Source: an uncultured Candidatus Binatia bacterium
Lineage (GTDB): Bacteria > Desulfobacterota > Binatia > Bin18
Direction of reading: 5' to 3'
Assembly: GCA_965200965.1 (NCBI GenBank)
Contig: OZ241744.1
Coordinates: 2,624,001-2,688,000, forward strand
Length of the DNA stretch: 64,000 nucleotides
Shown: in pieces, positions 1,081-46,947 of the stretch
How positions within the stretch are numbered: the first letter of the stretch is position 1
Layout of the letters: each line of letters opens with the position of its first letter
Program-made: the position numbers and the translations under genes
Notes under the pieces: model-generated
Told to the model about the DNA's origin: nothing
The model's database searches: none
The model's input: the letters and a program-made list of their open reading frames with translations, nothing else

Positions 1081-2475
1081 CTACCCTTGCCAGTATTGCT
1101 GCACCCAGGCCAGGGCGGCTTCACGGCTCGCCAGCTTGCCTTCGAGCTGCGCGTCTTCAACCGCGGTCAGAATGTCTGTGAAGCGCGGTCCGGGGCGGAG
1201 GCCAAGGGCGATGAGATCACGGCCGGTCAGGAGACGCGGCGGCGCGAGTTGGACCGGCCCGAGGCGTTCTCGCTGCCGGCGGCAGAACTCGTATGGACGC
1301 AGGTCGCCGCTTGAGGCCAGGGCGTCGAGGCGCGCCAACTCCAACAGTTCTTCAATGCCGTCTTCGCGCAGAAACCGTTTGAGCTTGGCCGGACGCATAT
1401 TCGGGGCGCTGAGCAGCCGCAGATGGTTCTTGACCAGATAGGCCACCCGCTGCCACACTGCGCGTGAGCGTTTCAGCCGTTGACAGATGGCCACCGCCTG
1501 CTCTGCCCCCTGCTCACAGTGACCAGAAAACGTGGTGCGCTGTGGCTTGACCATGTCGTGCAGCAGAGCGCCAAGCGCCAAAGTTTCGCTCAGGACGGAA
1601 TGTGTCGCTTTCCCCTCGGTCTGTTGACACGTTTCGTCCTGTGGCCGCCCATCTGCCCATTTGTCCAGTTCGGCCAGCAGCAGCAGGGTATGGGTGAACA
1701 CATCCCCCTGTGGATGAAAATCGGGCGATTGCTCAACGCCGCGCAGCGCTTCGATTTCGGGCAGGATGACGGCCAGCAGGCCGGTCTCGGCCAGCAGTTG
1801 AAAACCGCGCTGGCCCCCGCCCTCGGTGAGAATCTTGACGACCTCGTCACCGATCCGTTCCCAGGCGATAGTGCTGATCCTTGGGGCGAGGGCTTGGAGG
1901 GCGGCGAAGGTCTGGGGGGCGAGGGCAAATCCCAGCCGGGCGGCAAACCGGACGGCGCGGATCAGGCGCAAGTGATCCTCGCGGAAACGGGCCACCGGAT
2001 CGCCAATGGCCCGGATCACCCGCTGGCTCAGGTCGTGTTGGCCGCCAACATAATCAATGACCTGCTCGGTAACGGTATCGTAGAACATGCCGTTGATGGT
2101 GAAATCGCGCCGCCGCGCGTCTTCCCGCGCATCAAGGCCGGAATGTGTCGCCTTCCCCTCGAGATGTTGACACGTTTCATCCTTGCTGAAGCGGACGCCG
2201 GTCGGGTGGCGTCCGTCAAGATAGCGGCCGTCGGCCCGAAAGGTCGCCACCTCTACTTTTGAGACCAGCACGACCCCGAACTGCACCCCAATTGGGACGG
2301 CCTGGGGAAACAGGCTCAGGACTTGGTCGACCCGGGCGCTGGTTGCCACATCAAAATCCTTGGCCTCCAGCCCCAGCAGGCGGTCGCGTACACAGCCCCC
2401 GGCCAGATAGGCGCTGAAACCGTGGGCGTGCAGCGTCTCAATAATCGTTCGAGCATGGCGTTCCTGGGGGCTCAC
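1081..2475 (-). CDS. cca: CCA tRNA nucleotidyltransferase / poly(A) polymerase family with HD domain
   Basis: Motifs GGCVRD, DFDVAT, RRDFTING, EDHLRLIRAVRF, H-x-QGDVFTHT, LLHD. Start taken at GTG 2475. Contains two 17-aa insertions. Confidence 0.9.
   Translation of the reverse strand: MSPQERHARTIIETLHAHGFSAYLAGGCVRDRLLGLEAKDFDVATSARVDQVLSLFPQAVPIGVQFGVVLVSKVEVATFRADGRYLDGRHPTGVRFSKDETCQHLEGKATHSGLDAREDARRRDFTINGMFYDTVTEQVIDYVGGQHDLSQRVIRAIGDPVARFREDHLRLIRAVRFAARLGFALAPQTFAALQALAPRISTIAWERIGDEVVKILTEGGGQRGFQLLAETGLLAVILPEIEALRGVEQSPDFHPQGDVFTHTLLLLAELDKWADGRPQDETCQQTEGKATHSVLSETLALGALLHDMVKPQRTTFSGHCEQGAEQAVAICQRLKRSRAVWQRVAYLVKNHLRLLSAPNMRPAKLKRFLREDGIEELLELARLDALASSGDLRPYEFCRRQRERLGPVQLAPPRLLTGRDLIALGLRPGPRFTDILTAVEDAQLEGKLASREAALAWVQQYWQG
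1591..1641 (-). repeat. 51-bp palindromic element inserted in frame in cca (QDETCQQTEGKATHSVL)
   Basis: caggacg-aaac-GTGTC-aacagaccgaggggaaagc-GACAC-attc-cgtcctg; removing it restores P|SETL. Confidence 0.85.
2134..2184 (-). repeat. 51-bp palindromic element inserted in frame in cca (KDETCQHLEGKATHSGL)
   Basis: aagg-atgaaac-GTGTC-aacatctcgaggggaaggc-GACAC-attccgg-cctt; removing it restores VRFS|DAREDARRRDFT. Confidence 0.85.
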
Positions 2476-2511
2476 CCGGCTATGGTGACACGGCCAGGAA
2501 GCAGGATCAAC

Positions 2512-2540
2512 TTGTCGGAGACGGTCCGGCTGGTTAGACT
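2512..2540 (+). promoter_or_regulatory. Sigma70-type promoter of murF, probably leaderless
   Basis: TTGTCG-17 bp-TAGACT, with the ATG at 2548 following 7 nt after the -10 box. Confidence 0.5.
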
Positions 2541-2547
2541 GAGGCCC

Positions 2548-4014
2548 ATGAAGCTGACGGCAGAACAGGTGTGCGCCGCCACGCGCGGAACGCTGAGCTC
2601 CGGGCCGGCAGACACGCTGTTTCGTTCGGTGACAATTGACTCCCGCACGGCCAGCCAGGGGGCTTTGTTTGTACCGCTGCCCGGTGCCAGGACCGACGGC
2701 CATGCCTATCTTGGGGCGGCCGTTCGGCGGGGAGCCGCCGGCTTCCTGTACGCCCGCCAGGCCGTGGCCACGCTGCCAACCGGGGCAAGGGCGAAACGTG
2801 CCAACATCCCGGGGGGAAGGCGACACGTTCCGGCCTTGGTGAGCATTGGCGTATCAGACCCCCTGACCGCCCTCCAGGACCTCTCGGCCTGGCACCGCGC
2901 CAGACTGCCGGCCACGGTCGTCGGCATCGCCGGCAGTAACGGCAAGACGACCACCAAAGAATTGCTGGCCCAGGTGTGCGCCGCTCACCGGCCGAGCCTG
3001 GCCACCCCGGGCAACCTGAACAATCAGATCGGCCTGCCGCTCAGCCTGCTGCGGGCCGACGGTGACGAAGACATCCTGATCCTGGAGATGGGTACCAGCG
3101 GCCCCGGTGAGCTGAGCAGGCTCAGCCGCCTGGCCCGTCCGCATATCGGGGTCATCACCTCAATTGCCGAAGAGCATACCGAGATGCTGACCGACCTGTC
3201 CGGTGTGATCGAAGCCGAGACCGAGCTGCTCGCGGCTCTGCCCGGCGATGGGCTGGCAATTGTGCCTGGCGATGATGCCGCCCTGGTGGAGACCGTCCGG
3301 GGCCGGGCCGTGTGTCGGATTGTCACCTTTGGCGAACACGCGAGCAACGCCTTCCGGGCCGCTGACATCCGGGTTTCCCGGCAGGGAACGCAGTTCATGG
3401 CCCAGACCCCGCTTGGGGCCCGTCCGGTCCGCCTGGGTCTGCTGGGCAGTCATTTTGCCCTGGCCGCGCTGGTGGCGATTGCCGTTGCAACTGAGTGCGG
3501 TATTGGCCTGGACGCGGTATGCGAGACCCTGGGCACGGCCCGCGGCGCGCCGCGGCGCATGGCGGTCATTGCCGTGCCCGAGTGCGGCCTGACGATTCTT
3601 GACGACTGCTACAATGCTAATCCCGCCTCCGTGCAACAGGCCCTGCTGACCGCCGGGCAGGTGCGTACCGCGGGCGAGCGGCTGATCGTCGTGCTGGGCG
3701 ATATGCGGGAGTTGGGAGCGATCAGCCTGGTCCGCCACCAGGAAATGGGCGAGCTGGTGGCGCGCCTTGACCCCCACCCGGACCTGCTTGTTACGGTGGG
3801 ACAGGAAGCCCGGGCTATTGCCGACCAGGCCCGGGCCAAAGGGGTAGCGGTCCAGACCTTTGCTGCGGCGGATGAGGCCGCGGCTTTTCTCCACGACACC
3901 CTTCGGCCCTCTGCCGGCCGGCACTTGGTGCTGGTCAAAGGCTCGCGCGGAGTACAGCTTGAACGTGTCAGCCAAGCCCTGACCGGCCCCTGCCCGGATG
4001 AGAGCGAGGCGTGA
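2548..4014 (+). CDS. murF: UDP-N-acetylmuramoyl-tripeptide--D-Ala-D-Ala ligase
   Basis: IDSR, DGH, GSNGKTTTK P-loop, NNQIGLP, EMG, DDCYNANP, GDMRELG, VKGSRG. Confidence 0.92.
   Translation: MKLTAEQVCAATRGTLSSGPADTLFRSVTIDSRTASQGALFVPLPGARTDGHAYLGAAVRRGAAGFLYARQAVATLPTGARAKRANIPGGRRHVPALVSIGVSDPLTALQDLSAWHRARLPATVVGIAGSNGKTTTKELLAQVCAAHRPSLATPGNLNNQIGLPLSLLRADGDEDILILEMGTSGPGELSRLSRLARPHIGVITSIAEEHTEMLTDLSGVIEAETELLAALPGDGLAIVPGDDAALVETVRGRAVCRIVTFGEHASNAFRAADIRVSRQGTQFMAQTPLGARPVRLGLLGSHFALAALVAIAVATECGIGLDAVCETLGTARGAPRRMAVIAVPECGLTILDDCYNANPASVQQALLTAGQVRTAGERLIVVLGDMRELGAISLVRHQEMGELVARLDPHPDLLVTVGQEARAIADQARAKGVAVQTFAAADEAAAFLHDTLRPSAGRHLVLVKGSRGVQLERVSQALTGPCPDESEA
2787..2837 (+). repeat. 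51-bp palindromic element inserted in frame in murF (read in a different phase: RAKRANIPGGRRHVPAL)
   Basis: aagg-gcgaaac-GTGCC-aacatcccggggggaaggc-GACAC-gttccgg-cctt, near-identical to the cca copy at 2134. Confidence 0.85.
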
Positions 4015-7627: not shown

Positions 7628-8733
7628 TACCCGTCCTCCGAGACACGCTTTTTCCTTCTGCGAGGTCTCTGTTTGCGTTCCATCTCCTCGTAGAGGTCAT
7701 TCGCAATATCCGCTACCGTACCGGCAACCCTGAGCAGTCCCTCTGAACCGTCATAGCCGGTGGAAAGCAGACCACGCGCCTGCTCAAGCGATTGCTTTGC
7801 CGCATACAGCGCCTCATTGAAAACGGTAGACGACGGACGGCTCTTCTCGTGGGCGGCTGCAAGGCTGCTGCCTCTGCGCAGGGCGGCAAGCGCCTCGTCA
7901 TTGGCTACGACTGCGTCGAGTTGCCGGAGATGCGGATTCTGTGTCTCAATGACAGGAGGCACCTCCTCCTTCTTGCTGCCGTACATCCAACGGCAAAGCT
8001 CGCGGAGTTCTTCCTTTTTCCCGGCAGGAACCGGCTCTGGGTCCTCTTCAGTCTCCGGCCCTAAGCCAAGAAAGGCGCTGATGCCCTCGTAGCCGATCCC
8101 CGTGTACATATGGGAAAATGAAAAATGGTTTCTCCAGCGGTCTTTGCGGCTGAATACCTTCAGCTGTTCGGCTTGTTCAATGACCATCAAGCCACGGAAC
8201 AGCCTATGGACGGTCCTGTGGGTGTCACCAATCTGTGTTGCGATATCTTCGAGTGCAGCACCGAAATTTCTATGCACATCCGCGATGTATTGGGACTTGG
8301 CGTAGCTGCTCCATTTGGCCGGTCCATTAACATGTTTGAAGCCGAGATAGCGCCAAGTGTCTTCGCGGGTACCTGATATTGTGGGAAGCTCTCTCAGCGC
8401 TTCCCTGACATCTTTCGTGACGGGAGGAACGTCCGCTCTCAAGTCCTTGGCAATGGTGGGTTCGAGGAGAACTTTGACCGCGGCGAGACGACGGTTTCCC
8501 TCAATAACAATGTTTTTCCCCTTCTCCTGCGCCACGATCAGGGGTTCGTGGCGAAAGAATCCGCTGGCTGCGATCGACAGGACCAACTCGTTCACGTCCA
8601 TCGCGTCCCATAGAATCCGTATCACGTCTGCCTCTGTCGAGTTGCTGGTCAGATCAAACTCACGAAGCCGAGGGTTCTTGAGATCGAACACCAGTTCCGA
8701 GACGTTCATGGGGGTGATGTGCTCGGTCTTCAT
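7627..8733 (-). CDS. ParB/Srx-like N-terminal domain protein
   Basis: DLKNPRL, SIAASGF, EPL, VIEGNRRLAAVK, HVNGPAKW. Confidence 0.75.
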   Translation of the reverse strand: MKTEHITPMNVSELVFDLKNPRLREFDLTSNSTEADVIRILWDAMDVNELVLSIAASGFFRHEPLIVAQEKGKNIVIEGNRRLAAVKVLLEPTIAKDLRADVPPVTKDVREALRELPTISGTREDTWRYLGFKHVNGPAKWSSYAKSQYIADVHRNFGAALEDIATQIGDTHRTVHRLFRGLMVIEQAEQLKVFSRKDRWRNHFSFSHMYTGIGYEGISAFLGLGPETEEDPEPVPAGKKEELRELCRWMYGSKKEEVPPVIETQNPHLRQLDAVVANDEALAALRRGSSLAAAHEKSRPSSTVFNEALYAAKQSLEQARGLLSTGYDGSEGLLRVAGTVADIANDLYEEMERKQRPRRRKKRVSEDG

Positions 8734-9605
8734 GGCATCTTCTTCCCTAAGTCGGTGCGGTCTGGCGGGCGGACATGCGGTGGCAGAATCACCAACTCCT
8801 GCGCGCGTTTCTTGTGCTGAAGGCTGTACCGAAGCGCAACATGTGAGAAGTCACAGGTCCGGTACAGGGCACGAATGAACGGGGCATCATCGTAGGACAT
8901 GATCCATTTCAGGCTGACCCGTCGCAGCATGGAGCGCGCAAGCTTTTGATGGTCGTCCCGGTTGGTATAGGAGTTCCGGTACAGGCGATTGCCGCCATTG
9001 GCGTAGTAGGGCGGGTCCAGATAGGCGAAGACCCGCCGGCGCGCCCGGCCACGCGGGAGAGCGTTGACCAGAAATGTGCGGGCGTCCTCGTTCGTGATAT
9101 GAATATGGTCACGTTGCAAGGCGATGGCTCGCACGCGCGCCGCAAGCGTCTCCCGATAAAACCGCGCGTCAAGCCGCCATTTCCCCGCTTGCGCATAGCC
9201 GCCAATCGGAGCGGAGCCGAAGAGGATGCCAGAGCGATTGCAGCGGTTCAGGTAGAACACAGAGAAGCCCACGGCAAAGGGCGTCCTGGCGTCGGCGCGT
9301 GTGCAGATATCCTGTTGCTTCCGCCACTCCGCCATGCTGAGTGGAACAGACAGGATCGCCTCGACGAAGCGTTCCGGCTCACCAAGAACCGCCTGCCAGA
9401 ACGCCGTGATACGCGGGTCTGCGTCGTTCAGACGCAGTCCAGAGACAATCCCCTCCCCCAACAGGCGGAGCGCGGCCCCTGCGCCCCCGGCAAACGGCTC
9501 ATAGTAAACGCAGCCGGACAGGTCGTTTGCCGCAATGACCTGCGCGAGGAACGGAGCCAGCGCGGCTTTGCCGCCTGGGTATCTGAGCGGGCTGGTGAGC
9601 GTCAT
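8730..9605 (-). CDS. DNA adenine methyltransferase (D12 class, Dam-like)
   Basis: SPLRYPGGK, EPFAGG, FYLNR, YLDPPYY, MSYDD. Confidence 0.9.
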   Translation of the reverse strand: MTLTSPLRYPGGKAALAPFLAQVIAANDLSGCVYYEPFAGGAGAALRLLGEGIVSGLRLNDADPRITAFWQAVLGEPERFVEAILSVPLSMAEWRKQQDICTRADARTPFAVGFSVFYLNRCNRSGILFGSAPIGGYAQAGKWRLDARFYRETLAARVRAIALQRDHIHITNEDARTFLVNALPRGRARRRVFAYLDPPYYANGGNRLYRNSYTNRDDHQKLARSMLRRVSLKWIMSYDDAPFIRALYRTCDFSHVALRYSLQHKKRAQELVILPPHVRPPDRTDLGKKMP

Positions 9606-9676
9606 GCTCCTCCTGTCTTCCTGCGCTGTCCATCACAGTCAGCAGAAAAAAGAACGCCCTCCGTGCAACGGCCCGG

Positions 9677-9706
9677 AGGGCGGATGAGCGAAGCGTCATC
9701 CGCCCT
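9677..9706. repeat. REP-like perfect palindrome
   Basis: agggcggatga-gcgaagcg-tcatccgccct (11-bp stem), intergenic. Confidence 0.6.
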
Positions 9707-9712
9707 GCTCCC

Positions 9713-9862
9713 TTACTTCTTTCTGCTGCTTGTCATCTTCGGCGGCTTAGGAGGCGGTTTTTCGGGGGACAGCTTGCTCTTCGTCGGTTGATATCCTTCC
9801 CTAAAGTGTCGCCTGGGTTGAGGGGTGTTTTGTCTCTGGTCGGGTTTGTCATGCTTACTCAT
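9713..9862 (-). CDS. Small Lys/Pro-rich peptide (49 aa, EGYQP motif)
   Basis: MSKHDKPDQRQNTPQPRRHFREGYQPTKSKLSPEKPPPKPPKMTSSRKK; aggagg RBS; start overlaps the end of the upstream gene. Below the ORF-track size cutoff. Confidence 0.55.
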   Translation of the reverse strand: MSKHDKPDQRQNTPQPRRHFREGYQPTKSKLSPEKPPPKPPKMTSSRKK

Positions 9863-10466
9863 GTGTTTCCTCCTGAGGGGTATAGGCCCAAAACTCTATC
9901 GTGCTGATCTCTCCAGCGGCGATGAGTACGCCTCTCTCATTGGTCGAAGACCAAGTACCAGTATCGTCAATATCATAGACCCACTGAATATACATATCGC
10001 GCTCGCCAGGAGTGGAAGAGGTGAAAGATTGCGAACCGTAGAATCCGGCGAGACAAGTCCCATCTCTGAGTGTCACACGAACCCATTGTTCTTCCCTACC
10101 GCCGAACTTCCAGTCCCAGGCGGTCGGTGTGGCATGAACAGGGTACAGACCGAACCAATTGAGGAGGCGGCGAACAAGGCCTTTCTGGATGGTGATCCCG
10201 AGGAACAGGCCGAAAACGACAGGGCCGACGAAGACCAGGCCGAACCAAGCCCACATTGATTGCTGTAGCAGTGCGGGATCAACAAAAGGGAGAACCAGAG
10301 CACCATAGACGACAGAAACAGTCAGGTAGGAAAGAAGCGCGGCGGTGTTGCTGTCGGACGGCCTTCTTGTGGTGATGAACTGCGACCTGACAAACAGGGC
10401 AATAAAGCCAGGGACGATGCAGGGCAGAATAAGGTAGAGACTATTGAGGGATAGCAATTTAGGCAC
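9855..10466 (-). CDS. DUF6338-like membrane protein
   Basis: VPGFI, three hydrophobic helices, PTAWDWKF, WVRVTLRDG...G.YG..SF.S...RDMYI. Confidence 0.65.
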   Translation of the reverse strand: MPKLLSLNSLYLILPCIVPGFIALFVRSQFITTRRPSDSNTAALLSYLTVSVVYGALVLPFVDPALLQQSMWAWFGLVFVGPVVFGLFLGITIQKGLVRRLLNWFGLYPVHATPTAWDWKFGGREEQWVRVTLRDGTCLAGFYGSQSFTSSTPGERDMYIQWVYDIDDTGTWSSTNERGVLIAAGEISTIEFWAYTPQEETHE

Positions 10467-10489
10467 GGGTCAATATCCCTTCCAGTCCT

Positions 10490-10522
10490 GTAGGTCGGCG
10501 TAGCCGCCGGGCGTAAGCCGAC
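10490..10522 (+). repeat. GTAG-type REP palindrome
   Basis: GTAG-gtcggcgta-gccgccgggcg-taagccgac; direct repeat of the copy at 6634. Confidence 0.7.
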
Positions 10523-10552
10523 ACAATGAAAAGACTCCCAGCCTGCTGATAG

Positions 10553-10825
10553 CTACCGGAGATGCACGGCATGAGAGAAATATCCCAGGTCTACCGGCTG
10601 GGTGGTGATTGTCTGGACCGAGAAAAGCCCGTCCTTGTAGAAAGTTCTGCCGGTCAGGACCGCATCCCGGGCGGTGGTGTAGATGCCGATGACCTCTTCA
10701 TGGCGCATGAGGGCGTGCCGATTCTCATATTTTCTCAAGCTCGGCAGGAGGCGTTTGAAGGCGTGATAGTTCTTTTCGATTTCCTCCAGCCGAGCGGCGT
10801 TGTCCGGGACTTCTTTGTTGCCCAT
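10553..10825 (-). CDS. Small hypothetical protein (DUF5678-like)
   Basis: NYHAF..LLPSL....HALM...EVIGIY.T..DA...G......FSVQ.I...PVDLG.FSHA; aggaggg RBS. Confidence 0.6.
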   Translation of the reverse strand: MGNKEVPDNAARLEEIEKNYHAFKRLLPSLRKYENRHALMRHEEVIGIYTTARDAVLTGRTFYKDGLFSVQTITTQPVDLGYFSHAVHLR

Positions 10826-10893
10826 TGTGTCCCTCCTGTTCATTCTGTTCGTCTCTCCTCAAAAAATACCCCAATCCGATCGCCGGCGTCAAT

Positions 10894-11475
10894 TCAGAGG
10901 CGGATGTCGGCGTCGGGGTGGCCGGCGGCCAGGGCGTTGAGCCAGGCGAGGCACAGCTCGCGCGAGCGATAGCGGCCCCAGGTGGCGGTTTCCTGGCGTT
11001 CGACGATGGGGAAGGTGGCGTAGATGTAGCGCACATCGTTGCGGTCGGTGAGGCCGTAGAGGTGGAAGAAGACGGCGTCGAGCTTGGCCCGCAGGTGCAG
11101 CCGGCGGTCTTCGTCCCACACGAACGGCGGCTTGACCCGCCCGGCGGCATCGACATGGCCGAGGTCGCGGGCAAACGGGGCCATGTCGTGGGCGGTGTAG
11201 GTCAGCTCCAGCACAGCTTCCCGCACAATCTCGCCGGCCGTCTTGGTACCGAAACGAACGGTGCCGTAGGTTGCGGGTGGCATGACGGGGAGCTGTTCAA
11301 CGATGTAGTAATTTAAACTGGTGCTATGAATTTTCTGACGGGTGATGAAGTCGAAGATCGTCGAGTTGAAGTTTGCTATCAGCAGCCATTCCGTGCGTTC
11401 GGAAGTTTCCGGGTCCGCTATGAGGAGCGGGGCTTTGTTCCCCAAACCGACAAAAGGGACTGCGGCAGCGATCAT
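10894..11475 (-). CDS. C-terminal part of the type IIG-like R-M enzyme (in frame with the upstream ORF)
   Basis: NFNSTIFDF..RQK, LNYYIVEQLPV, LRAKLDA.FFHLYG; separated from 11479-14874 by one TGA. Confidence 0.75.
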   Translation of the reverse strand: MIAAAVPFVGLGNKAPLLIADPETSERTEWLLIANFNSTIFDFITRQKIHSTSLNYYIVEQLPVMPPATYGTVRFGTKTAGEIVREAVLELTYTAHDMAPFARDLGHVDAAGRVKPPFVWDEDRRLHLRAKLDAVFFHLYGLTDRNDVRYIYATFPIVERQETATWGRYRSRELCLAWLNALAAGHPDADIRL

Positions 11476-11478
11476 TGT

Positions 11479-14400
11479 TCAAGCGTCGCTGGCGCGGGCG
11501 ATATCCCTAAATGTGACTGTCCATCCCGATCGGTCCGGCAACTTCACTTTGTCGGCGAGAACCCAATACTGTGGTATAGGCATGAAATTCGGGTCAGCCT
11601 TCTTATCCGGTGCAATCCCCCCGCTCAGGGCCGGATTGTGAAGGTTTTGCTCGTTTACTTTGACCGACGCGGCTCGGTGGTCAAACTGATGAATCATCCG
11701 ACCGACATACAGCGGCACCCACTCCCCCGACGGGCTACGAAAGCGGTTGCCGCCGACCGGATACGCGCCTTCTTGCTCCTCCAGTTCTTCGAGCGTGCGG
11801 AACAGGTGGGAGTCGTTGGTCATGTCAAACATGCGGGTGTATTTTACCGGCCACGCCTTGAGCTCCCGGCCCGCTGAACGGTCTACCAGGACGGGCAGAC
11901 GGCGGTAGATGGCCGTGGTCAGTTCGGCGTCCCGGCGGGTGCGGAAGATGGGCGCTGTGCCGGTGTTGGGGTTGACGCTGGCGAAGTCCTCCGAAGCCAG
12001 CGGAAAGCGACGGGAGGCGTCGTTCAGTTCTGACACGTCCTGGAGGAAGAACGCGCACTGGGCCGGAGCGTCGGACGGCGAGCGTCCGGTGACAAAGGCG
12101 CAGAACTTGAACCGCGAGTCCACATCCGGGAAGAAGGGCGGCGCGGTGTAGCGCGTGCGGCGGTTCTCAAAATCGTACAGCGTACGCAGCCGGCCTTCGG
12201 TTGCGACTGAACGGAAGAAGGGGGCCGCGGTCTTGTCTGAGGCAATACCGGACGGGACGAGCAGGCCGACGAGGCCGTGTGGCTTGACCAGGGCCAGGGC
12301 GCGTTCGACAAACAGCGCGTACAGGTTCACATCGCCCCTGGACAGCAGGGGGTAGTCGCCGCCGGTCCGGGCCATGCGGGCGGTAGACTCGGCCCGGGCG
12401 TTGGCCCGCTCAAACGCGCCGGCCAGGGGGTCGCCGTCGTCCTGCAAGGCGGCGATCATGCGCTTGCGGTCGTCGGCGCGCTGGGCGTGGGCAATGGCCG
12501 GCCGGCGGGCCGCAAACCATTCGACCTGCTGGAGCTTGATGCGGTCCCAGGGCGGGTTGCCGATCACGGCGTCAAAGCCGCCCTGGCGTTCGGGCCGCTG
12601 CCAGTCTGACCACACCCCGGGAAAGGCGACCTGCCAGTGCAGAAATCCCTCTTCGGCGATGAGGTCCCGCGCGCGTGCCAGGAGGGCGGCAAAGCTGGCG
12701 CTGGCTGGGTGATCGTCCCGCGGCTCGGTGGCTTCAAGGGCGATCTGGATCGGGTCGCCAAGCCGGCCCTCAGTAAAGGCCCGGACCGCGGCCCGCTCGT
12801 CCTTGGCCTTCAGGTTCAGCCAGTCCAGGGCGTGGCTCAGGGACAGAAAGGATGCGAGCGGGGCGGTGCTGGCCTGCATGTCGTCGAAGATGTGGGCGGA
12901 GCGGTGGGCCTCGGCAATCTCGGCGTCGGTCAGGGCCTCAATCTCCTGCATCTGGGCGGCGGCCTGGGTGGCCTCGTGAAGTTTGGGGGTCAGGTACAGG
13001 GCACTCTCGCCGGTCATCACCCGGTCAATGCCCTGGGCCACCCAGCAGCCGAACAGGCTGTTGCCGCAGCGCAGATGATGGTCCAGGAAGCTGAGCGGTG
13101 CGCCGACGGTAAAGGTGTGCAGCCACAGCGACACCTTGGCCAACTCGACCGCCATCGGGTTTTTGTCTACCCCGTAGACGCAACGCTTGAGCACCATGCG
13201 GCGGACAATATGGCGGTCGTCCAGTTGCTCAGGGTCAATGCTCCAGCCGTGTTCCTCGGCGTTGGCGGTGATGCGCTGGCGAATGGCCTCAATGCGGTCG
13301 CCGAGCCGGCCCTCTTCAGACGGATCGTCCTCCTCGTCGGCCATGGCCGCAATCACCCGGTCGGCCAGATAGTCCACGAGGCTGACCAGAAAATGCCCGG
13401 AGCCCATCGCCGGGTCACATACCTTGAGCTCCAACAACTGCTCTGCGCTGCGGCCCCTGACCAGCGGCTCAAGCGTCTGGGTCAGGATCAGGTTGACGAG
13501 CGTATCCGGGGTGTAATAGCTGCCCGAGCCTTTGCGGGCGAACACATTGGGCCGGACGAGAATCTGCCCGCCGTCGCGCACAATCTCGTGCTCAAGCAGC
13601 CGCTCATAGATCGAGCCGAGCTGCTGCACACTCAGGTCACGGTAGTTGATGTAACGCCGGCCTTTCACCTTCCGGTCGAGGGCACGTTCACTCCTTTCAA
13701 ACGACAGGGTGTCAATCACATCGGCCATAAGCTGATCGCCCAGCCGGATACGGGCCAGCAGCGGCGTGTGCTCCCGGTCGAACAGCCCGCCGTTATAGGC
13801 CGGCAGGCCGATTGAGGCGTCGCCCCGGTCAAGGGCCCGGCACAGGTCGTCAAGGGCTGACCAGTAGCGGGCCGCGCTGGCGGAGAAAGTATCGTCCCGG
13901 TCCTTGCGCCGGCGCACATCTTCGCGCACCCGCTCGCGCAGGCCGTAGTCGTCGTAGCGCGTGTCGCGCACCGGCAGCAGGCTGCGGTCTTCGGCGTACA
14001 GAATGAACAGCAGGCGGTAGAGCAGGGTCAGGGCGGCGTCGCGCACTTCAGACAGGGGCGTGTCTGGCGCGGCGGCGTCGGCAATGGCCCGGGCCAGCTT
14101 GGGAAAAACCTGCTTGAAGACCAGCTCGGACAGGTCGGCGGCCACCCGCTCTTCATAGAACCGTCCCTGGTCAAGCGCGCGCTGGTGCAGGCTGGGCCGG
14201 TCCGCGGTGGCCACAAAAGCGTCCCGCCCGAAGAAGAGGGCAAACAGCTTGAGGCAGTGCCGGTCGGGGCGGAGCGCCGCGGTCAGGTCAAGCTCAAAGA
14301 ACTGCTCGGACACCGACCGCGCGCCGGCATAATACAGCCGCCATTTTGCGCCGTTGGTGAGGATGCCCCAGCGGAGCCGGCCGTCGGTCAGGTCGTCTGC

Positions 14401-14874
14401 CCGCCGCAGATAGCGCAGCATCTGGGTTGACGGCGCGGTCCGCTCGCCGGCCCGGTCCGAGCGGCGGTCGAGGGGCCGTTGCCAGCGCTTGGCCTCCAGC
14501 ACCGCCAAGCCGAATTGATAGCGCTGCCATTCCTGGCCGAAGCCGTTGGCCCGGTCCTTGGCCGCGGCGTCGGCGAACAGCAGGCCGTCGGGCACATCGT
14601 CCCGGCCCTGGGCGCTGAGGTTCTGCTGTCGCAGGCTGGCCGTCCAGCCCAGCCGTTCCAGCACCGGCCAGATCAGATCGTCTTCGGTCTGGCTCTCGTT
14701 GGGGCTCTGGCCGGTCGGAAAGCGCTCAACGACCGCCTGCAACTCGCCGGCCAGGGCGTCGAGCCGGGCGTCCTCAAACGCCTGCCAGTCATCGAGCCGG
14801 GCCACCGACCCGGTGAGAAAATCCCAGGCGAACAGGCTCCCCCGAACAATGCCTTCAATACTCATCCGCCTCAA
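11479..14874 (-). CDS. Type IIG/Eco57I-like fused restriction-modification enzyme, interrupted by an in-frame stop
   Basis: N-terminal PD...EAK nuclease with WGILTNG, then YNGGLF, LGSIYE, GSYYTP, DPAMGSGHFL, GNPPW. Confidence 0.88.
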   Translation of the reverse strand: MRRMSIEGIVRGSLFAWDFLTGSVARLDDWQAFEDARLDALAGELQAVVERFPTGQSPNESQTEDDLIWPVLERLGWTASLRQQNLSAQGRDDVPDGLLFADAAAKDRANGFGQEWQRYQFGLAVLEAKRWQRPLDRRSDRAGERTAPSTQMLRYLRRADDLTDGRLRWGILTNGAKWRLYYAGARSVSEQFFELDLTAALRPDRHCLKLFALFFGRDAFVATADRPSLHQRALDQGRFYEERVAADLSELVFKQVFPKLARAIADAAAPDTPLSEVRDAALTLLYRLLFILYAEDRSLLPVRDTRYDDYGLRERVREDVRRRKDRDDTFSASAARYWSALDDLCRALDRGDASIGLPAYNGGLFDREHTPLLARIRLGDQLMADVIDTLSFERSERALDRKVKGRRYINYRDLSVQQLGSIYERLLEHEIVRDGGQILVRPNVFARKGSGSYYTPDTLVNLILTQTLEPLVRGRSAEQLLELKVCDPAMGSGHFLVSLVDYLADRVIAAMADEEDDPSEEGRLGDRIEAIRQRITANAEEHGWSIDPEQLDDRHIVRRMVLKRCVYGVDKNPMAVELAKVSLWLHTFTVGAPLSFLDHHLRCGNSLFGCWVAQGIDRVMTGESALYLTPKLHEATQAAAQMQEIEALTDAEIAEAHRSAHIFDDMQASTAPLASFLSLSHALDWLNLKAKDERAAVRAFTEGRLGDPIQIALEATEPRDDHPASASFAALLARARDLIAEEGFLHWQVAFPGVWSDWQRPERQGGFDAVIGNPPWDRIKLQQVEWFAARRPAIAHAQRADDRKRMIAALQDDGDPLAGAFERANARAESTARMARTGGDYPLLSRGDVNLYALFVERALALVKPHGLVGLLVPSGIASDKTAAPFFRSVATEGRLRTLYDFENRRTRYTAPPFFPDVDSRFKFCAFVTGRSPSDAPAQCAFFLQDVSELNDASRRFPLASEDFASVNPNTGTAPIFRTRRDAELTTAIYRRLPVLVDRSAGRELKAWPVKYTRMFDMTNDSHLFRTLEELEEQEGAYPVGGNRFRSPSGEWVPLYVGRMIHQFDHRAASVKVNEQNLHNPALSGGIAPDKKADPNFMPIPQYWVLADKVKLPDRSGWTVTFRDIARASDA
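13665..13696 (-). repeat. Truncated copy of the palindromic element, in frame in the R-M gene (RSERALDRKVK)
   Basis: aaggagtgaac-GTGCC-ctcgaccggaaggt-GA; the left arm matches the ileS-lspA copy. Confidence 0.55.
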
Positions 14875-16061
14875 GATACCGCCAGGCAGGTTTTTGCCTT
14901 GGGAAAACTCTTGACCGCTTCAAAGAAGGCCGTGTCTGTGATCTCTGTGGCCCACTCAAGCCGGAGACGAATGCGGTATTTTCCTGTCTCGCTTTTCTCG
15001 GCAGCAACAGCGCGCAGGCTAAGGAGCTGATTCACATCCCGGATGAGGGCTTTAGCAGGACTCTTGAGCTGAAAATAGTAACGGTCAACCGCATTGATCA
15101 GTTGGTCAAGCTCTAAGGAATCTCGCTCCAACAGCACTTCAAGAATTTTGAGTTGCCTCTTCGCCAGGACTCGTTTTCTGTCGCTTTCCAGGTGCTTGAA
15201 GAGATCGTGCATGACATTCCGGTACAGGGCTTTGGAGACATTGCGCCTGATTTCCCTGAAAAGTCGCTGGCATTGCCGGGCGATCCCTCTCAGGCCAAAG
15301 CGCAGGAAGGGGGTCAGATCGTGTGCCCTTTCTCTGGCCTCTTTGAGAGTTGCAAGATAGGTGTCTTTCTCGTCGTAGTAATAGTTTGACATGGCTATAA
15401 AAAGCTTGTCACGCCGGCCGGCCCGCTGAAGCATCAACGCCTCAACTGCCCGTGCTGTCCGACCATTTCCGTCAAGGAACGGATGCAGAGCGGCAAAGTG
15501 GTAATGCAGAGCGAGCGCCTGGATAAGAAGATCATACTCTGGAAATTCTTTCTCCACGGCTTTCATAAGACTCGCAAACACTCGCTCACACTCTGCACCT
15601 CCTTCTACTCCCCTATGCCGGAGTCGGCCAAACGTCACATTCTGGTCTTTTCCCCGGAGCACCCCTGGCGGGCAGTGATCATCATCCGCTCCAGTGACGA
15701 TCCGCTCGTGGATAGCCCGGATCAGATTGACGCTGATCGGCCTGTCGTCCGGGAGTGAGGCGATCCACTTATACGTCTTGACCGCAGCATGGGCCTGTCG
15801 CTGAGACCGGGTAAGTAATTGCTCTGGAGTTTCCTGCAATGCCTCTTCCAACTCATCTTCGGTAAAATCGGCCCCCTCAATACGCGAAGTCCCCGCAACT
15901 TCCCGCTTGAGTTGAATCGCCTGAAGTTCCTCCACCCAGCCGCGTTGGAGCGGCATTGTTCGCAGAGAAAGAACGCTGGCCTTGGCGTCTGTCAGAACAT
16001 CTACCAGCGCGCCGGCGTCGTAACACAGCCAGCGCGTCGGCCGCGTGTACAGAATAGCCAT
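14871..16061 (-). CDS. Fic family protein
   Basis: TSRIEG, HPFLDGNGRTAR Fic motif. Confidence 0.9.
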   Translation of the reverse strand: MAILYTRPTRWLCYDAGALVDVLTDAKASVLSLRTMPLQRGWVEELQAIQLKREVAGTSRIEGADFTEDELEEALQETPEQLLTRSQRQAHAAVKTYKWIASLPDDRPISVNLIRAIHERIVTGADDDHCPPGVLRGKDQNVTFGRLRHRGVEGGAECERVFASLMKAVEKEFPEYDLLIQALALHYHFAALHPFLDGNGRTARAVEALMLQRAGRRDKLFIAMSNYYYDEKDTYLATLKEARERAHDLTPFLRFGLRGIARQCQRLFREIRRNVSKALYRNVMHDLFKHLESDRKRVLAKRQLKILEVLLERDSLELDQLINAVDRYYFQLKSPAKALIRDVNQLLSLRAVAAEKSETGKYRIRLRLEWATEITDTAFFEAVKSFPKAKTCLAVS

Positions 16062-16782: not shown

Positions 16783-16865
16783 GCCGCGTGTCCTTTGTGT
16801 GTTTGCCCGCCGTCCGTCCAGTCTATACAATACGGTCAGTCTGGCGAGACAAGGACAACACCACG

Positions 16866-19800
16866 ATGAAACCGGTTGCTGAGAATGTCAAGTTCCCCGA
16901 GGTCGAGCTGGAAGTCCTCCAATTCTGGGACGAGGCCAAGGTTTTTGAAAACACGCTGAAAAAAACCCGGGATCAGCAGCCGTTCATTTTTTATGACGGC
17001 CCGCCGTTTGCCACCGGCCTGCCGCACTATGGCCATCTGCTGGCCGGCACGATCAAAGACATCATTCCCCGCTTCTGGACCATGCGTGGCCGCTATGTGG
17101 ACCGGCGTTTCGGCTGGGACTGTCACGGCCTGCCGGTCGAAATGGAAATTGAGCAAGCCCTGGATTTGCACGGCAAAAGCGAGATTGAGCGCTTTGGGGT
17201 AGCCAGGTTTAACGCCGAGTGCCGCAAAATTGTGCTGCGCTATACCGAAGAGTGGGAAAAGACCGTGCGCCGGACCGGGCGCTGGGTTGATTTTCGGAAC
17301 GACTACCGGACGATGGACCTGTCGTTCATGGAAACGGTATGGTGGGCGCTCCGACAGATGTGGGACAAAGACCTGGTCTACGAGGGCTCGAAGGTCCTGC
17401 CCTTCTCAACCCGGCTGGGAACCGTGCTGTCAAACTTTGAGGCCAACCTGAACTACAAAGATGTCCAGGACCCGACCGTCACCGTCCGTTTTGCCGCGGA
17501 CGACGAAGAAAAGACATCGTTCCTCGCCTGGACCACCACGCCGTGGACCCTGCCCAGCAATCTGGCCCTGGCTGTCGGCCCGGACATTGCGTATGTCAAG
17601 GTCCGAGACCATGAGGACGGCACCCATTACATTCTGGCCGAGGCGCGGCTCGCAACCTATTTCCCCAAGCCCGGGACCTGCACCCTTGTCCAGCGCTATA
17701 CCGGGCGGGACTTGGTCGGCCGGGGCTATCGACCCGTATTCCCGTATTTTGCCGAGCACAAACAGCGCGCCGCCTTCCGTCTGATCGCTGCCGATTATGT
17801 CACCACCGAAGACGGAACCGGCATTGTCCACATTGCCCCGGCTTTTGGCGAGGACGACTTCCTGGCCTGTCAGCAGGCCGGCATTGCGTTGGTCAATCCG
17901 GTTGACGACGAGGGAAAGTTTACCGCCCAAGTCCCTGACTTCGCCGGCCTGCACGTCAAAGAGGCCGACGCCAGGATCATCGCCCATCTCAAACGCGACA
18001 AGCAGCTCGTCCACCAGGGCACAATTTTTCACAGCTACCCCTACTGCTGGCGGAGCGACACCCCGCTCATCTACCGGGCGGTGAATACCTGGTTTGTCCG
18101 GGTAGAAGCCTTCCGCGATCGGCTGGTGGCCAATAATCAGCGCACGACCTGGGTGCCAGAGCACCTGCGCGATGGCCGCTTTGGCAAGTGGCTGGAGAAC
18201 GCCCGCGACTGGGCAATCAGCCGCAACCGCTATTGGGGCACGCCGCTGCCGATCTGGAAGAGCGAGGACGGCAGCGAAGTCGTGTGTATCGGCAGCGTTG
18301 AGGAGTTGGCCCAAAGAGCCGGCGTGCGGGTCACTGACCTGCACCGCGAGTATGTCGATGCTCTGAGCTTTCCGTCCACAACCGGGGGCCTGATGCGCCG
18401 TGTCCCCCAGGTGTTTGACTGCTGGTTCGAAAGCGGCTCCATGCCCTACGCCCAGTTGCACTACCCGTTTGACAATGCCGAGCGTTTTTCGCGCACCTTT
18501 CCCGCCGACTTCATTGCCGAGGGGCTCGATCAGACCCGGGGCTGGTTCTATACCCTGATGGTGGTGGCCTCAGCCCTGTTTGACAAACCAGCCTTCCACA
18601 ACGTTGTCGTCAACGGCCTGGTCCTGGCCGAAGACGGCAAAAAAATGAGCAAACGGCTCAAAAACTATCCCGAACCTGACGAGATCATGGCCCAACACGG
18701 CGCGGACGCCATGCGGCTCTATCTCATCAACTCGCCCCTGGTCCGGGCTGAGGAGCTGCGGTTCAGCGAGCACGGCGTGCGCGATACCGTGCGCCGGCTG
18801 CTGCTGCCGTGGTGGAACGCATATAAGTTTTTTGTCACCTACGCCCTGGTTGACGGCTGGAAGCCCGAGCGCGTCCCGGCTGAAGCGTCCCCGAACATCC
18901 TGGACCGCTGGATCGTGTCCCGGCAGCAAACCCTGATCCGGCGCGTCAACGCCGAGATGGAAGCCTACCGGCTGTATACGGTGGTGCCGGCCCTGCTCGA
19001 CTTTCTGAACGAGCTGACCAACTGGTATGTGCGCCTGGGCCGCCGCCGCTTCTGGGCCGGTACCCCGGCGGACAAAAACTTCGCCTGCCGCAGCCTGCAC
19101 CAGGTCTTAGTAACCTTCTCAAAGCTGATGGCCCCGTTTACGCCGTTTCTGGCCGATGCGGTCTACCGCAACCTGAGCACCCTCCAGCCGGAGCGGGCCG
19201 CGGCCAGCGTCCATCTTGAAGACTTCCCCAGCTATGACCCCGCCGCGGTTGATGCCGGCCTTGAGGACGCGGTGGCCCGGATGCAGCGCGTTATCCTGCT
19301 GGGCCGCAGCCGGCGCAATGAGCGCAAGGTCAAGGTCCGCATCCCCCTCCAAACGCTCACCGTTCTCCATCGCCAGGAGTCCGTGCTGAATGACTTGAAA
19401 CCGCTCGAAGGCTATATCCGTGAAGAACTGAACGTCAAAACCCTTGCCTACAGTACAGCCGAAGACGAAAAAGTAGAGTTGCGCGCCAAACCCAACCCGC
19501 AGTTGCTCGGCCCGCGTTTCGGCAGGGCCTTCGGCCAGGTCCGCGAGCAACTGGCGACCCTCAGCCGGGAGCAGATGTTGCGCCTGGAAGCCGGCCAGTC
19601 CTTGCAGTTCAGCGGCCACGCCTTTCAGCCGGATGAGGTCCACATCCTGCGCCAAGCCAAGGATGGCGTCCCCGATGTCCACTCCGATCGGTTTATCTCT
19701 ATTGAGTTTCCGTGCGAGTTGAACGACGAGCTGCTCAGCGAGGGTCTGGCCCGCGAAGTGGTCCACCTGATTCAACACATGCGCAAAGAGGCCGGCTATC

Positions 19801-19997
19801 AGGTCGAAGACCGTATTGCCGTGACCTACCAGGCTGCTCCGCAACTGGCAAGCGCTATTGGTCGCCACCTGAGCTATATCCAGCAGGAAACCCTGGCTCG
19901 GTCGCTCGCCCGGGCGCAGCCGACCGGCGACCGGGTTGAAAGTGGGGATATCGACGGGGCCGCAATTACGCTTGGAGTCCAGCGCGAAGAGGAGTGA
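16866..19997 (+). CDS. ileS: Isoleucine--tRNA ligase (type 2)
   Basis: DGPPFATGLPHYGH, GWDCHGLP, WTTTPWTLP, EGLDQTRGWF, KMSKR. Confidence 0.96.
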   Translation: MKPVAENVKFPEVELEVLQFWDEAKVFENTLKKTRDQQPFIFYDGPPFATGLPHYGHLLAGTIKDIIPRFWTMRGRYVDRRFGWDCHGLPVEMEIEQALDLHGKSEIERFGVARFNAECRKIVLRYTEEWEKTVRRTGRWVDFRNDYRTMDLSFMETVWWALRQMWDKDLVYEGSKVLPFSTRLGTVLSNFEANLNYKDVQDPTVTVRFAADDEEKTSFLAWTTTPWTLPSNLALAVGPDIAYVKVRDHEDGTHYILAEARLATYFPKPGTCTLVQRYTGRDLVGRGYRPVFPYFAEHKQRAAFRLIAADYVTTEDGTGIVHIAPAFGEDDFLACQQAGIALVNPVDDEGKFTAQVPDFAGLHVKEADARIIAHLKRDKQLVHQGTIFHSYPYCWRSDTPLIYRAVNTWFVRVEAFRDRLVANNQRTTWVPEHLRDGRFGKWLENARDWAISRNRYWGTPLPIWKSEDGSEVVCIGSVEELAQRAGVRVTDLHREYVDALSFPSTTGGLMRRVPQVFDCWFESGSMPYAQLHYPFDNAERFSRTFPADFIAEGLDQTRGWFYTLMVVASALFDKPAFHNVVVNGLVLAEDGKKMSKRLKNYPEPDEIMAQHGADAMRLYLINSPLVRAEELRFSEHGVRDTVRRLLLPWWNAYKFFVTYALVDGWKPERVPAEASPNILDRWIVSRQQTLIRRVNAEMEAYRLYTVVPALLDFLNELTNWYVRLGRRRFWAGTPADKNFACRSLHQVLVTFSKLMAPFTPFLADAVYRNLSTLQPERAAASVHLEDFPSYDPAAVDAGLEDAVARMQRVILLGRSRRNERKVKVRIPLQTLTVLHRQESVLNDLKPLEGYIREELNVKTLAYSTAEDEKVELRAKPNPQLLGPRFGRAFGQVREQLATLSREQMLRLEAGQSLQFSGHAFQPDEVHILRQAKDGVPDVHSDRFISIEFPCELNDELLSEGLAREVVHLIQHMRKEAGYQVEDRIAVTYQAAPQLASAIGRHLSYIQQETLARSLARAQPTGDRVESGDIDGAAITLGVQREEE

Positions 19998-20035
19998 ACA
20001 CGTCATCAGATCGAAAGGTGACATGTTCACTCCTT
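19989..20035 (+). repeat. 47-bp variant of the palindromic element overlapping the ileS stop
   Basis: gaggagtgaac-ACGTC-atcagatcgaaaggt-GACAT-gttcactcctt. Confidence 0.65.
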
Positions 20036-45646: not shown

Positions 45647-45697
45647 AAGGCCCCAGCGTGTCATCCGGTTGAGAGGAAGGCGACCCGGTGGGTCCTT
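45647..45697 (+). repeat. 51-bp palindromic element, intergenic copy
   Basis: aagg-ccccagc-GTGTC-atccggttgagaggaaggc-GACCC-ggtgggt-cctt. Confidence 0.8.
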
Positions 45698-45759: not shown

Positions 45760-46947
45760 ATGAAATCGTCTCCTCGGCCTCCCCGTGTTGTTGTCATTGG
45801 TGCCGGCATTGTCGGCGCTTCCATCGCCTTCCATCTGTCACAGCGGCCGGTCCGGCTGACCGTGCTTGACCGGGCTGAGCCGGGTTCTGGAGCGTCCGGC
45901 CATTCATTCGCCTGGATCAACGCCTCGGCCGGCAAAGAACCCACCGCCTACCACGACCTGAACCGCCGTGCGGTCGATATGTGGGACCGTTTTGCCCGGA
46001 GGCTGGCCAAAGCCCCAGCGTGTCATCCGGTCGAGAGGAAGGCGACCCGATGGGTCCCGGCTGATGTCGGCCTGGTGTGGGGCGGGGAACTGCGCTGGGC
46101 GCGGACGCCCGGCGAGGCTGAGGCGCTGCGCGCCGCGGTGGCCGTCTTGGGCCGGCGTGGGCACGACAGCCGGCTGCTGAGCGAGGCCGAGTGCCGTGCC
46201 TTGGAGCCGGGGCTGCGGCTCGGGCGCTTTGCACTCGGGGCGTACAGCCCCAACGACGGGCAGGTTGATCCGGGCAGGGTGATTCGGGCCTGCCTGGGGC
46301 AAGTGCAGGCCAGGGGCGGGGCGGTCCAGGAGCGGACGCGCACTGTCGGCTTCCGGCTTGACCCAGCGACTGGCCGGGTAAGCGCGGTCCAGACCGATGC
46401 GGGTGAGCTGGCGTGCGATCGGGTGGTTCTGGCTGCGGGTCTGGGCACGACCGAGCTGGCCGGTCGGCTGGGCATTCCTGTGCCACAACAGCGCAGCCCT
46501 GGGGTGGTGGTGCGGACCGAGCCGCAACCGCCGCTGTTCAAAACCCTGGCCGTACTGAATGTTCCTGGCCCGGACAGGGAGCGGCCGGGCATCCATATCT
46601 GCCAGCGGGCCGACGGGACGGTCATCATTGGCGAGGGAAGCCAGGAACGCCTGGCCAGCGATGATTCGCAGGGCCATGCCGAGGCCCTGCTGTCAGGCGC
46701 ACAGCGCCACCTGCCGGCGCTGGCCGCGGCCCGGGCTGTTCGCGTTCCGGTTGGCTATCGTCCGATGCCGGCCGACGGCTATCCGGTGGTCGGCTGGAGT
46801 CGGGCTGTGCCCAACGTCTATGTGGCGCTGATGCACAGTGGGGTGACGCTGGCACCGCTGGTCGGGGAGTGGGGCGCGCTGGAGATCATGGACGGGGCAG
46901 ACCTTGATCTGCTCGCGCCGTATCGGCTGGAGCGGTTCAGCCGCTAG
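45760..46947 (+). CDS. FAD-dependent oxidoreductase (DAO/glycine oxidase family)
   Basis: GAGIVG, ASGHSFAWIN, G.RPMPADG.P.VG, HSGVTLAP. Confidence 0.88.
   Translation: MKSSPRPPRVVVIGAGIVGASIAFHLSQRPVRLTVLDRAEPGSGASGHSFAWINASAGKEPTAYHDLNRRAVDMWDRFARRLAKAPACHPVERKATRWVPADVGLVWGGELRWARTPGEAEALRAAVAVLGRRGHDSRLLSEAECRALEPGLRLGRFALGAYSPNDGQVDPGRVIRACLGQVQARGGAVQERTRTVGFRLDPATGRVSAVQTDAGELACDRVVLAAGLGTTELAGRLGIPVPQQRSPGVVVRTEPQPPLFKTLAVLNVPGPDRERPGIHICQRADGTVIIGEGSQERLASDDSQGHAEALLSGAQRHLPALAAARAVRVPVGYRPMPADGYPVVGWSRAVPNVYVALMHSGVTLAPLVGEWGALEIMDGADLDLLAPYRLERFSR
46009..46059 (+). repeat. 51-bp palindromic element in frame in the oxidoreductase (KAPACHPVERKATRWVP)
   Basis: Near-identical to 45647-45697; removing it restores RRLA|ADVG. 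Confidence 0.8.

Follow-up and report, generated by a model that had tools for sequence, protein, structure and literature searches.

Short palindromic elements that lie in frame within housekeeping genes, sometimes twice in the same gene, have been found in host-associated bacteria. They include the Rickettsia palindromic elements (RPEs), the WPEs of Wolbachia, the betaproteobacterial BREs and the intragenic repetitive extragenic palindromic (REP) sequences of Opitutus terrae (cited sections of PMC3733652 and PMC3184786). A family of similar character is described here from a 64,000-nt stretch of DNA (the window; positions are window positions unless marked G000) of a sponge-associated Binatia bacterium, whose genome, G000, is a complete single contig of 3.62 Mb. 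Its unit is a hairpin of 51 bp, present in about 100 copies, which is found in frame in genes such as cca and murF. The element is real, mobile and lineage-restricted, and it is apparently undescribed as a family, the kind of element being already known. No published description of this family was found; subscription journals, supplements and figures (Figure 9 of PMC3733652 with its TIR sequences, for one) lay beyond the search and may affect the assessment of novelty.

In the account given in part of PMC3184786, RPEs have a length of about 105-146 bp, whereas the present unit is 51 bp; the two share in-frame insertion into functional genes. The element is set apart from RPEs by this length and by having no Rfam match, RPE sequences being compared by description only. 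RPE-4 and RPE-6 are CGTC-tagged REPs (section of PMC3733652), while this element is untagged. How RPE-type coding palindromes move has remained open. Exact empty sites, target bias and local copying are measured for this element, and the family offers what such cases mostly lack: dozens of pairs of filled and empty sites, a measurable target bias and donor-daughter pairs a few hundred bases apart. Subfamilies of different length allow a test of the reading-frame filter, and the element marks where essential enzymes tolerate insertions in their loops, among them the segment of Cca with the C-to-A switch loop. Should its mobiliser be new, it would constitute a footprint-free system of short insertion.

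The small dispersed repeats (SDRs) of Nostoc punctiforme are reported to have been described by Elhai et al. in 2008 as 20-30 nt in length and in frame within conserved genes, and they are not known to have an enzyme. One of them, SDR5, goes into a palindromic target at an exact point between two of its nucleotides (PMC4390886, in part). The present element differs in being twice as long, in its long perfect arms, in a weak bias rather than a fixed octamer, and in its phylum.

With REPIN/RAYT and TIRtron/TIRYT systems the element shares inverted conserved 16-mers around a spacer, non-autonomy, high copy number and presumed single-stranded recognition (passages of PMC3116915 and PMC3733652). 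As in a REPIN, two inverted conserved ends surround a spacer and fold as a hairpin. Unlike REPs and REPINs, however, its arms are not palindromes themselves, it has no GTAG foot and no GGGGWSAS motif, half of its copies are intragenic, and no repeat-flanked RAYT or TIRYT gene was found for it. Bacterial miniature transposable elements with inverted repeats (MITEs; Correia, RUP, ERIC and IMU) are likewise short non-autonomous units, whose core is non-coding and whose ends are terminal inverted repeats, and the 16-bp arms described here are such repeats, forming the ends of the inserted unit. MITEs carry target-site duplications and have a cognate insertion sequence (IS), according to part of PMC3184786; no duplication was found for this element, and no such IS in G000.

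The hairpin unit and its copies

The unit consists of two 16-bp arms around a 19-nt asymmetric, purine-rich loop, and its length in G000 is 51 bp in 77 of 81 copies. An iterated weight matrix run over G000 with a cut-off score of 10 returned 100 copies above it, while the reversed genome, used as a control, reached a maximum of -2.4. An earlier reading of the window from its letters alone (the sequence-only reading) had placed five 51-bp copies there; all five were recovered, with 5 matches of the core pattern in the window and 0.00 in 100 shuffles. It had also described the unit as usually bounded by AAGG...CCTT. A..T ends do exist (19 of 90 G000 copies), but A..C (30) and G..T (25) are commoner, and G..C occurs only 4 times.

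On 66 copies, 87% of arm cells are paired, with 152 double changes compared with 62 in shuffles and none of 500 shuffles as high, although shared ancestry among copies means that p-values on copies, here and below, are overstated. Arm positions 5-10 vary freely yet stay paired, and in G000 the bases of the loop are conserved.

According to a codon-based gene model made for this analysis, 49 of the 100 copies are inside open reading frames, 40 are intergenic and 11 span gene ends. Coding copies scoring at least 30 number 45, of which 33 are at least 20 codons from either end of the gene. A Pfam scan of 84 genes near 68 copies named hosts that include MurJ, threonyl-tRNA synthetase (thrS), Cas3, ATP synthase delta, dehydroquinate synthase and a histidine kinase; another is a GHMP kinase, probably IspE. 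The Cas3 gene (L057:1629-4358; G000 2840128-2842857) holds three in-frame copies, each in a different frame.

Copies in the window are partly decayed, with DNA-fold z-scores from -2.0 to +0.1, compared with -6.6 for a perfect copy. Two further copies were found there besides the original five (Table 1). In the 47-bp copy the left arm provides the stop codon of ileS (16788-19997), and the sister species, G007, has an exact empty site. The isoleucyl-tRNA synthetase thus ends a few residues sooner than in G007 owing to this copy, which parts ileS from lspA. The eroded copy in the methylase gene amounts to a net 21 nt relative to G007, with the reading frame preserved.

Table 1. Element copies and host genes in the window, and loci of the nested element in relatives; the strand of each copy was assigned by loop orientation
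Feature	Position	Strand	Remarks
Element copy, 51 bp	1591..1641	-	in cca, phase 0, residues 279-295
Element copy, 51 bp	2134..2184	-	in cca, phase 0, residues 98-114
Element copy, 51 bp	2787..2837	+	murF N-terminal domain, phase 2
Element copy, 51 bp	45647..45697	+	intergenic, HSDR_N-domain gene on one side, oxidoreductase on the other
Element copy, 51 bp	46009..46059	+	in DAO-family FAD oxidoreductase, phase 0, residues 84-100
Shortened element copy, 47 bp	19989..20035	+	ileS/lspA junction; covariance-model match
Eroded element copy (one arm and part of loop)	13666..13696	-	inside Eco57I-type methylase gene
Host gene, class II tRNA nucleotidyltransferase (cca-type), 464 aa	1081..2475	-	PolyA_pol and HD domains
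Host gene murF, 488 aa	2548..4014	+	TIGR01143 above cut-off
Host gene, DAO-family FAD oxidoreductase, 395 aa	45760..46947	+	host of the 46009..46059 copy
Element inside REP/BIME-like repeat	L166, L167, L177, L086, L209, L214, L215, L224, L225		

A covariance-model scan, which had been proposed for the genome and its relatives, yielded more copies and confined them to two genera of the same family (14 of 61 genomes matched); the exact core of a longer subfamily was present in 23 of 301 genomes of the class, all in the same two genera. Copies in relatives have nearly invariant arms and a loop centre that varies in sequence and length; they are mostly 53-55 bp, few are coding, and none of 43 has G..C ends. 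In the other genus a 54-bp member is in frame in murF, about ten codons from the site in G000, and on this comparison murF is a gene hit independently in two genera. Other hairpin subfamilies of 45-54 bp, with a similar style of ends and different arm interiors, are found at G000 223902, 966482, 1489727, 2441952, 3412319, 2503202, 2597085 and 3271108, the last being of the 53-bp type of the relatives.

Empty sites, target bias and local spread

The comparison with G007, itself complete, covered 800 kb of that genome and 53 G000 copies whose two flanks fell within a single stretch of G007; three with non-adjacent flanks were dropped. At the remaining 50 sites the projected gap is exactly 0 in 24 (18 of 28 coding ones), six are shared, some of them eroded, and the rest are empty with nearby indels. 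In the reverse direction, 9 of 30 G007 copies correspond to a clean 51-bp gap in G000, as judged by eye. Most copies are therefore specific to one species and arose after the two split.

Since G000 is a metagenome assembly with an estimated contamination of 5.7%, an artefact of assembly or binning might be considered. It can be dismissed for practical purposes: contigs from three further runs of three studies keep all three cca and murF copies with their own substitutions and contain no skipping joint, and six sites are shared with G007. In a second region, no 51-base skip was seen among the 15 joints listed out of 29.

Alignment of Cca, MurF and the oxidoreductase to orthologues defined the empty sites. 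That of cca 2134-2184 is exactly 51 bp at the DNA level in 8 of 10 other genomes aligned, while G007 carries the same element. In G003 a different 45-bp palindrome with similar ends is present in frame at the nucleotide corresponding to 2184 (L014); the site is empty in G001, G005 and G006, which have other indels in common with G003. A search of five genomes allowing 3 mismatches gave no further copy of the 45-bp insert, which also has no covariance-model match. At the 1591-1641 site, cca of G007 retains a 30-bp remnant after an in-frame deletion of 21 bp. All 5 congeners compared have an exactly empty site in the oxidoreductase gene, as do all 11 aligned relatives (G007 and 10 others) in murF, and the intergenic copy is absent from G007, with small indels close by. 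The expected gain of exactly 17 residues per coding copy agrees with the 51-bp empty sites, but the copy at 1591-1641 nets 16 residues relative to congeners, an adjacent codon being missing. Cca of G021 (L026) has a 16-residue insertion at another site, which does not match this element.

No target-site duplication accompanies insertion, in line with the earlier remark that none was obvious: flank repeats of 4 nt occur at none of 98 copies, and those of 2-3 nt at chance level. Models with a 1-bp or 2-bp duplication or core fit no better than chance. There is, however, a symmetric target bias, C(-4) or G(+4) occupying 110 of 188 positions compared with 0.33 for DNA close by (p=4e-13), which is equal in coding and non-coding copies and recurs in relatives. 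The junctions have no conserved dinucleotide of the kind expected of IS110/IS1111. The idea of a guide sequence was also rejected, as loop or arm middle match their own flanks no better than shuffled flanks. The view of the unit as a non-autonomous mobile micro-element is thus supported by about 100 dispersed copies, exact empty sites, the lack of duplication and the lack of an Rfam match, and the same inserts did not appear in distant taxa. A selfish mobile element is considered very probable.

Copies cluster along G000, with 30 of 99 neighbour distances below 3 kb against 7.8 expected at random. Those within 10 kb of each other differ at 11.1 positions compared with 16.3 (none of 2000 permutations as low), and the nearest sequence relative lies at most 20 kb away for 18 of 94 copies (2.2 expected). 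The 45647 and 46009 copies are mutual closest sequence relatives. The murF copy has 6 differences from the cca copy at 2134-2184 in G000 and 9 from its version in G007, so an intragenic copy likely acted as donor and the murF copy is likely its daughter. Because copies cluster and neighbours look alike, copying was probably local, and the element likely copies itself to nearby sites. The half of G000 nearer the origin, as set by GC skew, holds 75 of 98 copies, an excess that could also reflect the location of old core DNA.

Candidate mechanisms and the search for an enzyme

The account judged moderately probable is that of a non-autonomous, blunt-inserting 51-bp element, likely a single-stranded hairpin copied locally by a trans-acting enzyme that is most likely of the HUH/Y1 type. 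Such a hairpin is favoured because there is no duplication, pairing in the arm middle outweighs sequence, the loop is conserved and copying is local. The element would be copied as a single-stranded hairpin intermediate, and replication would link the copying to nearby DNA. The enzyme would be supplied in trans; its gene was not found in G000 by family searches. Template switching would be the source of the paired arm changes and of loop flips. At the level of the host, genic copies would survive where the frame is open and the protein loop tolerant, be translated as 17 residues and later decay.

The class of the enzyme is the weakest step, and its assignment to HUH/Y1 is tentative, standing at somewhat less than an even chance. 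The mobiliser search covered seven families (PF01797, NF047646, PF02371, PF00078, PF00239, PF01609 and PF00589) rather than the whole proteome. A domain scan of the window genes agrees with the earlier statement that no mobilising enzyme is encoded there. Copies flanking HUH/Y1, IS110 or reverse transcriptase (RT) genes, which the sequence-only reading had suggested looking for, were seen neither in G000 nor at the loci of relatives.

Several observations weigh against a HUH/Y1 hairpin mechanism. G000 has no match to PF01797 or NF047646, and no Y1/RAYT gene was found in the element-rich relatives G003, G007 and G050. In relatives, 60 Y1/RAYT loci were searched without the element or any convincing arm being seen, and where these loci were examined for repeats their flanks were mostly GTAG-type REPs. 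The hairpin has no unpaired GTAG or CGTC foot, its flanks are without a conserved tetranucleotide, and TGTC lies within the 16-bp stem. Targeting by IS200/IS605 is by a one-sided tetranucleotide (part of PMC6006769), and the symmetric target bias is a better fit to a dimer on double-stranded DNA than to one-sided targeting. Finally, neither an excision junction nor a circle junction was seen in contigs, from which rare forms are lost.

The same C(-4)/G(+4) symmetry is what a MITE-like element would lead one to expect, in which a dimeric transposase or recombinase, inserting bluntly, would read the arms in double-stranded form as terminal inverted repeats. The nearly invariant arms and variable loop centre of the relatives point the same way, and the rarity of G..C ends (4/90 in G000, 0/43 in relatives) suggests an end requirement. 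In G000, however, arm middles are more variable than the loop, and the target duplication typical of MITEs (PMC3184786, in part) is lacking. Nor was a candidate enzyme found: IS110 (PF02371) is absent from G000, G007 and all of 10 g8 genomes, and resolvase (PF00239) and DDE_Tnp_1 (PF01609) are absent from G000 and G007. The two PF00589 tyrosine recombinase genes of G000 are taken to be XerC/D. A self-BLAST of G000 revealed no dispersed multicopy IS-like repeat, and no autonomous IS sharing the element's ends was seen in G000. In G006, the unpaired exact arms of the 20 regions inspected are truncated copies; 13 further such arms lay outside that set. A MITE-like origin is therefore regarded as improbable.

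Other possible sources were also searched. In G005 a lone arm-like match adjoins an IS110 gene; it lacks a partner arm and was judged to be chance; the RT and IS110 loci of relatives hold neither the element nor a paired arm. Viral contigs gave 16 single-arm matches and 28 loci with 9-bp inverted repeats that are without the ends and loops of the element, and these were rejected; they gave 0 matches to the G000 core and no serine recombinase among 27 neighbours scanned. In plasmids no match exceeded 19 bp.

It is also conceivable that no dedicated enzyme exists, and that the replication or repair machinery of the host duplicates the hairpin through template switching or takes it up at a break close by. 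The majority of copies occur in only one of the two sisters, neither of which has a gene of the tested transposase families, and local copying and the origin-proximal excess (75/98) would suit such a route. Template switching normally needs microhomology at the junction, whereas the empty sites are as a rule without it (the copy at G000 2722023, with a repeat of 5 bp, is an exception). The target bias and the constancy of ends and length point to a nuclease. Host machinery is universal, yet among 301 genomes the core pattern turns up in just two genera, both of one family, and the apparent absence of an enzyme refers to the seven families searched. This explanation is considered about as improbable as a MITE-like element.

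A broader possibility is a minimal mobile DNA with an undescribed mechanism, blunt and with a symmetric target, that would employ an uncatalogued enzyme or host machinery, would have been active after the split in both sisters and would give rise to recurring loops of 17-18 residues in essential enzymes, as in the separate insertions in MurF of two genera and at a single nucleotide of Cca in two lineages. It is considered unlikely.

Loop inversion, reading frame and host proteins

At two orthologous sites the loop is reversed while flanks and arms are unchanged: L189/L226, found by an automated comparison (1 of 16 pairs), and L066/L067, found by hand. Template switching has been described as homogenising arms and inverting spacers (PMC8604942, in part). 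As it can both flip loops and homogenise arms, arm covariation is no evidence of RNA function and may come from template switching instead.

This bears on the suggestion that the unit is a functional RNA, such as a regulatory hairpin, a mini-intron or a domain like that of the signal recognition particle (SRP), spreading via reverse transcription. Its conserved, asymmetric, purine-rich loop has a passing likeness to the SRP RNA helix of G000, sense orientation occurs in 35 of 45 coding copies compared with 9 of 27 co-oriented intergenic ones, and a Drt2-like RT locus is common to G000 and G007. The window, however, has no Rfam match, and a search with element copies gave only sub-threshold miRNA and snoRNA matches, over four of them. 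The SRP model RF00169 matches only the genuine SRP gene, and an origin from SRP RNA was rejected. The G000 RT gene (PF00078; L235:1048-2421, G000 about 2404900-2406300) has an internal TAG stop and no element nearby, whereas in G007 there is no stop within the matched stretch; 8 of 18 genomes are without an RT match, including the element-rich G050, G051 and G052. Furthermore, the loop inverts in place and erosions preserve the frame. Mismatches on the loop strand show no G-U excess (64 vs 75), and on the transcribed strand A-C mismatches outnumber G-U (63 vs 34, p=0.004, a test inflated by shared ancestry). As A-C mismatches weaken the hairpin in mRNA, it looks as if the hairpin were selected against there. 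An RNA function is thus very improbable, and a mobile hairpin DNA remains preferred.

The sequence-only reading proposed that a length divisible by three (3n) lets the element colonise genes, which is borne out in part. More coding copies are present in the genome with fixed 51-bp units, where 16 of 81 pass a strict coding test as opposed to 5 of 106 in relatives with lengths of 49-58 bp. Outside G000 the evidence is weaker, with 8 of 74 3n copies and 1 of 51 non-3n copies in coding DNA (p=0.08). The further expectation of at least two reading phases was borne out, the three other coding window copies being in phase 0 and that in murF in phase 2. One antisense frame is nearly always closed, being open in just 9 of 94 copies, and is used by none of the 45 coding copies, while sense frames are used by 35 of them.

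The 17-residue inserts are mostly polar and rich in R, S, G, T, P, E and D. A model of Cca built from the alignment (mean pLDDT 87) has low-confidence segments at 99-112 and 278-293, which correspond to the two inserts, and at 313-316. By alignment to 1MIV, the insert at residues 98-114 sits between the basic/acidic motif and DxxRRD (motif B), the borders defining the flexible loop required for the C-to-A switch (PMC2910056, in part). Later erosions preserve the frame, 21 bp having been lost in cca of G007 and a net 21 bp being left in the G000 methylase gene, as is expected if the insert is translated.

Restriction-modification-type genes are found in the window at 8730-16061 and 44510-45628 (D12 methylase, Eco57I-type methylase, Fic and HSDR_N), and many G000 copies are in or adjoin methylase and hsd genes. 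In G006, G024 and metagenome contigs, an element of 53-56 bp lies at one fixed nucleotide within a second, REP/BIME-like repeat, empty versions of which are also present. G006 also has tandem copies that abut or are separated by 1 bp and whose loops are related, not identical (L178:9342-9447 and L174:7009-7115). Lastly, G000 contains two arrays of about 33 kb (271755-305588 and 1131704-1165221) of tandem paralogous membrane-protein genes that are 85-96% identical to each other.

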